Source of the DNA: Promethearchaeota archaeon
GTDB taxonomy: Archaea > Asgardarchaeota > Lokiarchaeia > Sigyniarchaeales > SOKP01
Direction: 5' to 3'
Assembly (NCBI GenBank): GCA_019057865.1
Contig: JAHLWP010000016.1
Location: forward strand, 17,511 to 81,510
DNA length: 64,000 nt
Part shown: piece by piece, positions 10,206-13,204 of the stretch
How the letters are laid out: each line of letters starts with the position of its first letter
Numbering within the stretch: position 1 is the first letter of the stretch
Notes under the pieces: generated by a model
What the model saw: the letters and a program-made list of their open reading frames with translations, nothing else
Told to the model about the DNA's origin: nothing
The model's database searches: none
Translations under genes and position numbers: made by a program

Positions 10206-13204
10206 CTACCCCATTTTTTCTTTTTTCCATTCTATATATCCTTTAGTTTCTTTCCCACGCCATATAGATTTTTTACCTGTTTCCTCCTCATATTGTTTCT
10301 GGAGAGCTTCCTCATCATGAATTTTTGCTTCTACTTTTTTAGGTTTTTCCTTAACAGCCACTTTTTTTGGTTTCTTTTCAGTAACTTCTTCAATTTTAAT
10401 TTCTTTTTTCTTCGCAGGAGGAGCTTTTTTAATTTCAGTACGAATCTTTTCGACATCAAGAGCTTTTGCTTTAAGGAGCAAAACGTCTAAATTAACCGCA
10501 TCCCCATGATCTGTATGCATTACATCAACACCATCATCGCCAAAGGCGAACTGGATTATATTTTTATCAGAATTCCTTACAGTTCCATCATTTTCAATTA
10601 CCATATCCTGTAAAGCATTAACAAGCCTTCTCTGCATATATCCAGATGTGCTTGTACGTACTGCTGTATCAACAAGGCCCTCTCTTCCACCCATTGCGTG
10701 AAAGAAAAACTCTACTGGTTTTAATCCATTACGATATGATGATGAGACAAATCCTCTAGATTTAGGACTAAGATCATTAACCTTAAAATGTGGAAGTGTT
10801 CTAAGGGCATATCCACGATTAATTCTTTCTCCTCTGATTGCTTGTTGTCCAACAACAGCAGACATCTGACCTAGATTTAAAATATTACCTCGAGCACCGG
10901 ATTTTGTCATGATAACTGAATGCGCCTTATCCCCAATATAATCTGCTGCAAGTTCTTCGGCTTCTTTACGGGCTTCAGCTAATACTTGTCGTATTCGTAA
11001 TTCTAAAGTTTCTTTCATAGAACGTCCAGGAGCTCTTTTCAATATTTTAGTATCATTTTCATAAAAAGCTCCTATAAGTCTTTCAGATTCGTCATTAGCG
11101 TCTTTTAATATCTTTTGGATGGCTTCAAAAGCTTTACCTTTAACATAAACTTCATCTAATCCCATTGTCATTCCATTTTGGCGAATAACATGTAATAACA
11201 TTTTTGTTGCGCTATCTAAAAATTGCCTTCCTCGCGCATTGCCATGATCCTTAATAATACGTTGTAAAATGCTATTTGACTGCATAGCACCAAATGAATT
11301 CTCATCAATTGTGCCAGTTATTAAATAACCATTTTTAATTTCGACATATGCATCATAGGGACAATCTTCTTCTTCACATACATTACATTTCTTACAGAAT
11401 TTCGATCTTACCCTTATATTTAAGTCATCAGGAAATAAAGTACTAAAAATCTGCTTACCGGAATACATAATTTCAGGATCAGTAACTGCTGGTTCTAATT
11501 GATCCAAACTAAAATCAGGATTATTTTCAAAAATATCTCCAAGATACAATAATTTCAATGTGCTTTTTTTATTGTATAATGCGTCTTTACTCGTAAATTG
11601 GAAAACACTTGATATAAAATCTTGAATCCCTCCTAATATTGGCCCACCAAATCGGGGTGATAATATATGTTCTTGAACCTTAAGTAATAGTTCTGCCTCT
11701 GTTCGAGCTTCTTCACTTTGAGGTACATGTAAATTCATTTCATCACCATCAAAATCTGCATTATAGGGAGGGCATACAGTTAAATTTAACCGAAATGTTT
11801 TACCATCCATAATTTTAACTTCATGAGCCATTATCGACATCCTATGGAGTGAAGGTTGTCGATTAAATAAAACCAAGTCTCCATTACTTAAATGGCGTTC
11901 AACCGTAAACCCGGGTGTTAACATATCAGCAATGATCTTTCGATTTTTTACATACCGAAGATCAATTCTTCTACGATCATTTCGTATTATGTAATTAGCT
12001 CCTGGATGTCTATAAGGACCACTTAAAACCAGCTGTTTCATTTCTTCAATATTCCAATCATTAACATTAGTTGGAATGGTTAAGATTTTAGCAATTTCTA
12101 TTGGTACTCCAACTTCATTAATACTAATGTACGGGTTTGGAGATATTACACTTCTTGCTGAAAAATCAACTCTTTTACCACTTAAATTACTTCGAAATCT
12201 TCCTTCTTTACCTTTTAATCTTTGAGTAAGCGTTCTAAGTGCTCGACCAGAACGATGTCTGGCTGGAGGGATGCCCGAAACTTGATTATCAAGATAAGTA
12301 GTAATATGATATTGTAATAATTCCCATAAATCCTCAACAATTAGATGAGGTGCTCCTGCATCAATATTTTCTCTTAATCGTTGATTAATTCGAATAACAT
12401 CTACTAATTTATGGGTTAAATCATCCTCAGACCGAATACCACTATCTAGTGTAATTGATGGTCGTGCGCATACAGGAGGTATAGGTAATACAGTAAATAT
12501 CACCCATTCAAGTCGTGCATTTTCAGGAGAAATACCGAACGTCCTGAGATCGATATCAGTCATCTTCTTTAATCGTTCTAGAATCTCAATAGGTGTTATT
12601 CGCCGAGAGCCCTTCCCTTCTTCCTCCTGGTAAAACGTTGTAGGTTTTTCAATTATAATTTTTTTCTTTTTAGCTCCACAATAAGGACATACTTTACTTT
12701 TTCTAGCGCGTTTGAATACAAGCTTAGCAGCATCTTCATCTCCTTCAAAAAATAATTTTCGATGCTTGATTTGCTCTTGTCTGAATTTCTCTTTTTCTTC
12801 TTCAGTGAGCATTAATCTTGAGCATTCGGGACAAATTGAACGTAAAACTTTTAAAACTTTCTTTGCATAACCTACATGAATAACTGGACGGGCAAGCTTT
12901 ATACTAAGGCCTCGAAATGAGGCAAAAATCTCTCTATTTAGACTTTAGGGGTGAGAGGCCCCAAAAAATGCCCGAAATGCCCCATACAATTACTCACGAG
13001 ATTTCCACAAGTCTGACAACGTTGTCCTGGTTCAATTGTCCCAAGTCTTTGATCCATTAATCCACTCGGAATCGGAAGACCATCCTCATCATATGTGTCA
13101 GCAGTGATAATTCGTGCTGCTGACATTTTTCGAATCTCATCAGGACTAAGTAAGCCAAACTTGATTTTTTCTATCAGCTTCGTTCTTGAAAATGTATAAC
13201 TCAA
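10206..13204 (-). CDS. rpoA1: RNA polymerase subunit A' (Rpo1N), two exons 13204-12969 and 12903-10206, 977 aa after splicing
   Basis: 5' part [15 protein letters not shown]...CQTC...CMGHFGH; 3' part [12 protein letters not shown]...CPEC...NADFDGD; removing 65 nt restores the frame. Confidence 0.95.
12904..12968 (-). other. Candidate 65-nt structured mRNA intron in rpoA1 (relaxed BHB/BHL)
   Basis: Frameshifting insert with TAA inside the His codon of GHFGH-I; internal stems UGGGGC/GCCUCA and CUCUC/GAGAG; boundary ambiguous by 1 nt. Confidence 0.8.

Follow-up and report, generated by a model that had tools for sequence, protein, structure and literature searches.

A 64,000-nucleotide (nt) stretch of DNA from a Promethearchaeota archaeon (assembly GCA_019057865.1, contig JAHLWP010000016.1, positions 17,511 to 81,510; here called the window) carries on its minus strand the gene rpoA1, which encodes the A' subunit of RNA polymerase and whose reading frame is interrupted after the residues GHFGH. 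We propose, with a probability of about 0.8, that the 65-nt insert found at this point is made of two tandem bulge-helix-bulge (BHB) introns, A and B, together with a 4-nt micro-exon, and that the endonuclease EndA and the ligase RtcB would remove A first and B second. This anatomy was derived by comparison with about 90 homologues. Judged by its relatives, the host is a metagenome-assembled genome (MAG) of the Loki-type Asgard archaea (Promethearchaeota), from a genus that is well sampled.

Anatomy of the insert

The predicted parts of the gene are as follows, in the order of transcription.

12968..13204, minus strand: rpoA1 exon 1, 79 codons, with a TTG start, ending GGG CAU (the G and H of GHFGH)
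12938..12967, minus strand: intron A, 30 nt, supported by its geometry and by covariation over seven introns at the same codon
12934..12937, minus strand: micro-exon AUAG, 4 nt, an Ile codon and the first base of a Glu codon
12899..12933, minus strand: intron B, 35 nt, with bulges AG|A and AA|A (bars mark the predicted cuts)
10206..12898, minus strand: rpoA1 exon 3 (AG CUU GCC to the stop), without further interruption

As it stands, the upstream frame is an open reading frame (ORF) of 88 aa at 12938..13204 on the minus strand, with a TTG start at 13204, and the downstream frame extends from 12902 to a stop at 10206. Deletion of 65 nt (12968-12904) yields 978 codons including the stop, a protein of 977 aa. 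The original prediction, made from the sequence before any comparison, had treated these 65 nt as one intron. Its reading of the minus strand at 12904-12968 is exact, the stems that it named are present, and we reproduce both the stop after 88 aa and the 977-aa ORF on removal. Its central idea, that an intronic RNA of the BHB type lies within an intact, single-copy rpoA1, survives as well. The single intron does not, as the insert is better described as 30 nt, AUAG and 35 nt, and, in line with its own remark that the BHB fits less well than in rps12, a single 65-nt BHB is a weak fit. The insert has one copy only in the 4.26-Mb, 87-contig genome, which rules out a repeated mobile element.

In intron A the exon sequence GGGC (12973-12970) pairs with GUCU (12943-12940) at all four positions of the central helix. 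The bulges are AU|U and AA|A, and the 8-position hairpin is formed by the stem UUUUGGGG/CCCCUAAA, with one U.U mismatch, and the loop CCUCUCA. A BHB of this quality and a length of 30 nt has a frequency of about 4e-4 per position in this genome. Intron B is built differently. Its H' strand, GUAU (12904-12901), pairs with AUAU, a strand that is present only once intron A has been removed; the helix then has four of four pairs (AUAU/GUAU), as against three of four (AAAU/GUAU) with intron A in place. The inner hairpin of intron B is GCCUC-AUUUC-GAGGC at 12923-12909, and an outer exon helix is formed by CGGGC and GCUUG.

With these boundaries the 3' limit of the non-coding sequence is 12899, not 12904, and 12937-12934 are coding. 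Splicing both introns in silico gives a single 977-aa ORF that contains GHFGHIELARP. The junction that this supports is TTCGGGCAT|ATAG|AGCTTGCC (GHIEL), with the mature form TTCGGGCAT-ATAG-AGCTTGCCCG, and a junction of the form CATATAAAGCTT would be incompatible with it. At 87 uninterrupted homologue loci the residue that follows GHFGH and an I or L is E in 82, D in 5 and K in none, and the cDNA junction first predicted, TTCGGGCATATAAAGCTT (GHIKL), is therefore most likely wrong. It reads AUAAAG, which belongs to the H' strand and 3' bulge of intron B, as Ile-Lys, and in this way arrives at a K that is unlike the consensus. A cut that omits the micro-exon, by analogy with two relatives described below (L073 and L044), was also checked by hand and is ruled out: it gives CAU UUU UAG, a stop.

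Comparison across the genus

The sequence GHFGH|IEL is uninterrupted in 21 of 24 genomes of the same genus, and the remaining three, this one included, have inserts of 30, 65 or 85 nt. Inserts of 30, 31, 50 or 85 nt are found in other members and in metagenome contigs, either at the same codon or 4 nt downstream, and a wider draw of species representatives holds inserts of 30 nt in L041 and L057 and of 50 nt in L073. We also searched for orphan short exon-1 products. An intact rpoA1 is too long for that length class, so the matches are mostly truncated ORFs of interrupted genes; contigs were obtained for L202, L203, L204-207, L208 and L209. The relatives thus confirm that this class of insert is real and sits at the codon named by the original prediction, while its 3' boundary and its IKL junction are not borne out.

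The introns at the His codon number seven (this genome, L202, L056, L041, L057, L209 and L208). This class pairs exon GGNC with GUCU, GCCU or GGCU and has A(U/C)|N and A(A/U)|A as its bulges, with a 7-8-bp hairpin of unrelated sequence between them. The length is 30 nt (31 in L208), with the layout 1+7/8+loop+7/8+4+2, and a cut past the second bulge base gives GHFGH-IEL. When the seven introns are aligned, 97.4% of 77 pair cells are paired, a value that none of 500 shuffles reached; sliding the partners by 1-3 columns lowers it to 31-57%. Changes on both sides are seen in 7 of the 11 pairs. The pairing extends to the coding sequence: the Gly wobble base in the exon and the intron base opposite it vary together (AU 3, GU 2, GC 1, UG 1).

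For the longer class we enumerated the frame-restoring BHBs, which placed these introns 4 nt downstream. Intron B occurs alone in four other sequences, with a length of 50 nt in L073 and of 85 nt each in L044, L203 and L204. In these genes exon 1 ends CAU AUA G, so that AUAG is the end of exon 1; the central helix pairs AUAU with GUAU, AUAU or AUAC and is flanked by bulges AG|A and AA|A. These sites are shared by L073, L044, L203, L204 and L202, and all five lead to FGHIELAR. Over six copies of intron B the h' helix and the inner hairpin differ in sequence yet pair. The present genome keeps the B-type 3' end, GUAU AA|A G, and has no CAUAUAG after the His codon; its AUAG lies 30 nt further on.

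The same arrangement is found in L202, a 944-nt contig from an unrelated sequencing run. It has intron A (30 nt), AUAG and intron B (35 nt) in the same layout, with an exon 1 that is only 81% identical to the one studied here. Its intron A has the central helix GGAC/GUCU and the stem UUUUGGGC/GCUCAAAA, and its intron B has the h' helix AGAA/UUCU and the hairpin UGACG-AUUUC-CGUCA. Spliced in silico, L202 gives GHIELARPV. This contig is the strongest independent support for a pair of introns. Pattern scans for more copies of the long class returned just the two known copies and chance matches in the genome contigs, and two unrelated high-GC matches in the metagenome contigs.

One further contig is curious. 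At 784-830 of L210, a 1-kb metagenome contig, the sequence reads GGT CAT ATA ACT TGC CCG, which is 2 nt short when set against CAT ATA GAR CTT GCC. The shortfall lies exactly at the intron B site and shifts the frame; it may reflect an intron that was lost imprecisely, or an error in the assembly.

Folding and the inferred order of removal

In the AUAU strand of the intron B helix, the first AU comes from the 3' end of exon 1 and the second from the 5' end of the micro-exon. The central helix of intron B therefore spans the junction left by intron A, from which we infer that A must go first. Folding is consistent with this order. When intron A is deleted in silico, the unconstrained minimum free energy (MFE) structure is a one-register variant of the intron B BHB; in the unspliced RNA that BHB lacks its outer helix, and enforcing it carries a penalty of 6.0 kcal/mol against the ensemble. 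Translation of the rpoA1 mRNA would thus probably have to wait for two rounds of cutting and rejoining in a set order. Such an order would be mechanistically sensible, because simultaneous cutting of the four sites would leave a free 4-nt exon in need of religation, a release that removal of A before B would presumably prevent. By the logic of the sequence, cutting all four sites at once loses AUAG and shifts the frame. Ordered removal of introns in multi-intron archaeal pre-tRNAs was reportedly described by Tocchini-Valentini in 2009.

The unspliced RNA has a competing structure, which was already pointed out in the original prediction:

12904..12964, minus strand: long-range 10-bp stem UUGGGGCCUC/GAGGCCUUAG, arms at about 12964-12955 and 12913-12904, present in the unspliced MFE fold, not conserved

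One arm of this stem lies in the 5' part of intron A and the other in the 3' part of intron B, and its formation excludes both BHBs. It had been suggested that the RNA may switch between two folds and so control the production of RNA polymerase. We find no support for this: the stem is absent from L202, the sole other copy with both introns, and by our estimate roughly 0.1-0.2 stems of 10 bp would arise by chance in 65 nt, so that its origin could be fortuitous. No regulation is therefore indicated. The folding check proposed alongside the suggestion does recover the stem in the unspliced MFE structure, but the insert region is no more stable than shuffled sequence (z = -0.89; 36 of 200 shuffles were as good). 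It is the comparison with relatives, not the folding energy, that leads us to judge the insert to be non-random.

Proposed mechanism

Intron A would fold by itself, with exon GGGC paired to intron GUCU beside the 8-position hairpin. EndA would cut past the second base of each 3-nt bulge and RtcB, which usually turns BHB introns into circles, would ligate the ends. Excision of intron A would fuse the exon end ...GGGCAU with AUAG, creating the AUAU strand for GUAU of intron B, and the same junction would place CGGGC beside the intron B helix, where it could pair with GCUUG of exon 3. Intron B would then be cleaved at AG|A and AA|A. The four cuts are predicted between 12968 and 12967, 12938 and 12937, 12934 and 12933, and 12899 and 12898. 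The mature mRNA would read GGG CAU AUA GAG CUU GCC (GHIELA) and encode the 977-aa A' subunit.

Genes for both enzymes are present. The genome has two matches to PF01974 for EndA (104.6 and 70.5 bits) and one match to PF01139 for RtcB (561 bits), with the EndA genes on contigs C71 and C69 and that of RtcB on C75. The Asgard EndA is reported to be of the broad-specificity (alpha-beta)2 type, whose L1 loop permits relaxed BHBs, and we describe the geometry of archaeal BHB introns as it is defined in the same work (PMC5829648). This tolerance is relevant because intron A is without an exon-exon helix and intron B has a weak h' helix; with relaxed geometry, both would need an EndA of broad specificity. 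From the anatomy of the sequence, the restored consensus frame, the covariation, the enzyme genes and the intron-less alleles that match the junctions, all of which are observed, we infer that rpoA1 is spliced.

Contrary evidence and alternative explanations

Several findings weigh against two EndA-dependent introns. Neither A nor B has both of the outer helices of a strict hBHBh' motif: intron A resembles HBh', with an h' of 7/8 and no exon-exon outer helix h, and intron B in this genome resembles hBH, with an h of 5 bp and only 2-3 weak h' pairs. The central helix of intron B is composed entirely of A-U and G-U pairs here. In a nearest-neighbour model the unspliced RNA favours the long-range stem, and the intron A BHB lies 4.2 kcal/mol above the ensemble. 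A genome-wide scan for BHB candidates that fuse two ORFs of at least 100 codons returned 294 matches at the true cut, compared with 300-335 when the 3' cut was shifted by 1-2 nt. It thus showed no enrichment, but as neighbouring genes fuse by chance in such a scan, the outcome speaks neither for nor against splicing across the genome.

One 65-nt BHB intron with cuts at CA|U and AG|U would also restore the frame, giving GHFGHIKLARP, and a helix CGGG/CCUU with three of four pairs can be drawn for it, along with four U-G/U-A pairs. That said, the K that it introduces is unseen at the 87 homologue loci, in five other sequences the AUAAAG that it translates serves intron B as H' strand and 3' bulge, it overlooks the canonical 30-nt BHB nested at the 5' end, and the same cut sites form no BHB in L044. 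We hold it to be highly unlikely; a cDNA junction CATATAGAGCTT would be incompatible with it. We looked for a better single BHB by enumerating all frame-restoring cut pairs; no canonical BHB among them leaves the conserved residues in place, and the best-scoring ones delete FGH or 116-125 nt. A dead gene or a faulty assembly, with no splicing at all, is also very unlikely, if a shade less so; under this heading come a pseudogene, a chimeric contig and a minority allele. The MAG has 5% contamination, and exon 1 lies in a tract that is unusually divergent from the sister genome. Against this stand the facts that rpoA1 is an essential gene with a single copy in the genome, that the 899 codons 3' of the insert are intact and that independent assemblies from other studies have inserts at the same two sites with the consensus exactly restored. 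Exon 1, moreover, is by the evidence of its codons under strong purifying selection, with 36 synonymous and 2 non-synonymous codon differences from the sister genome L039.

The insert is short and structured and contains a stop codon, as might be expected if the ribosome bypassed it in the manner of T4 gene 60 or the mitochondrial byps, and an internal ORF with an ATG start at 10206..12812 could suggest that the subunit is made as two polypeptides. We regard either as extremely improbable. There are no matched take-off and landing codons at either of the proposed boundaries, the first stop comes 10 codons into the insert, bypass would leave the pairing of an exon wobble base with the insert unexplained, and a split protein would lose about 40 conserved residues. 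A last possibility grants that both introns are spliced and adds that the output of A' is tuned, either through competition by the long-range stem or through skipping of the micro-exon. The presence of that stem in the unspliced MFE fold, its exclusion of both BHBs and the loss of AUAG on simultaneous cutting speak for tuning. The lack of the stem in L202, its possible chance origin and a fold no more stable than shuffles speak against it, as does the failure to find a ligand or sensor element in the window, where Rfam has no matches; we think such tuning highly doubtful. Two introns removed in order remain our preferred reading.

Gain and loss of the introns

The sister genome G012 (locus L039), at about 95% nucleotide identity, has neither the rpoA1 introns nor an intron that we find in rps12, and its sequence is continuous exactly at the predicted junctions. 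Both rpoA1 introns are thus present in one and absent from the other of two genomes that are about 95% identical, which makes gain and loss directly testable. The rps12 intron lies in the same gene cluster:

7520..7549, minus strand: rps12 intron, canonical 30-nt BHB, with H CUGG/CUAG, a 9-bp stem and bulges AG|U and AG|A

The two genomes are 94-98% identical over most of 40 kb, with exon 1 at 83.8% and the next ~4 kb upstream at 90-92%. The break of this divergent tract lies 25 nt downstream of intron B, so that presence or absence of the rpoA1 introns matches the edge of what looks like a recombination tract. In both genomes exon 1 is at most 85% identical to that of any sampled species, and this gives no direction of transfer between the present genome (G000) and G012. 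Against L200/L201 (G012:C61) the tract is seen as a dip in identity to 84-92% at about 12940-17000 of the window, over about 4 kb.

In the rpoA1 tree, separate clades carry introns A, B and those of a second site, DGL|P, in a scattered pattern. At DGL|P there are 30-nt BHB-like inserts within the stretches L063:189-460, L072:1234-1505 and L202:550-846; L202 has three introns within the first 250 nt of the gene. These 250 nt are, on the sequences at hand, an intron hot spot in the genus, with at least three sites confirmed by sequence and hints of more. Products of short ORFs (P0014, P0028, P0033-P0047) suggest further inserts after CQTC, PSGL and DEDG.

We are inclined to think, with less confidence than for the intron pair itself, that the tRNA machinery routinely splices core-gene mRNAs in these archaea. 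Such splicing would be multi-step and ordered, would tolerate micro-exons down to 4 nt, and would involve fast gain and loss at a few BHB-competent hot spots, with spread maybe by homologous recombination in which exon flanks are co-converted.

Relation to known systems

In the searchable literature, cbf5 of the Crenarchaeota is the only archaeal protein-coding gene whose mRNA is documented to be spliced by EndA. In both cases a short BHB intron lies in a protein gene, it is cut in cbf5 by a hetero-oligomeric tRNA splicing endonuclease, and relatives have it or lack it in a patchy pattern of gain and loss (Yokobori 2009, PMC2738675). The present case differs in its Asgard (Promethearchaeota) host, in the gene, which encodes RNA polymerase A', in having two introns 4 nt apart and in a second BHB that would be completed only by the first ligation. 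Splicing of cbf5 has also been shown by experiment, whereas that of rpoA1 is predicted from sequence. The tandem, order-dependent pair in rpoA1 is new. Accounts of the cbf5 pre-mRNA BHB intron in Crenarchaeota are said to go back to Watanabe in 2002 and Yoshinari in 2006.

Other systems share single features. Archaeal multi-intron pre-tRNAs have several BHB introns per transcript, relaxed hBH and HBh' motifs, an (alpha-beta)2 EndA and cases where one intron must go before the next BHB can form, but an rpoA1 mRNA has no tRNA body to hold the pieces and an exon of only 4 nt between the introns. The census of Asgard tRNA introns concerns the same lineage and enzyme and describes repeated gain at BHB-competent sites. 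It deals with tRNA genes only; the term 'mRNA' is absent from it, and 'protein-coding' appears there once, for neighbouring genes. HAC1/XBP1 splicing in eukaryotes likewise rests on protein-only mRNA cleavage at paired stem-loops, ligation by RtcB or Trl1 and a change of frame; there, in contrast, the nuclease is Ire1 rather than EndA, splicing is regulated by stress, and a single intron is removed without BHB geometry.

If our reading is correct, production of the catalytic subunit of RNA polymerase would depend on the excision, in the correct order, of two mini-introns that flank a 4-nt exon. Splicing of mRNAs by the tRNA machinery would then be normal in the archaeal group closest to eukaryotes, and the closest prokaryotic relatives of eukaryotes would have a protein-only system of interrupted genes that is independent of the spliceosome. 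A 150-nt substrate and two enzymes would make a simple system for studying ordered splicing and the retention of a micro-exon without a spliceosome. There would also be a consequence for annotation, in that standard gene callers would systematically mis-annotate core genes in this group. Databases hold many rpoA1 'fragments' of 50-150 aa from the genus, which are read-throughs of exon 1 into introns; one cluster has 106 members.

Surroundings of rpoA1

At the gathering threshold no Rfam family was matched in the window, and ARAGORN found no tRNA there. With no Rfam match in the window and inserts of just 30 and 35 nt, the introns are not of the self-splicing group I or II kind. The gene rpoB is not found 5' of rpoA1, which is preceded by a 389-nt spacer (13205-13593) and divergently oriented genes upstream, as in L204-L206. 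The start codon of rpoA1 is TTG (13202-13204), where relatives have ATG.

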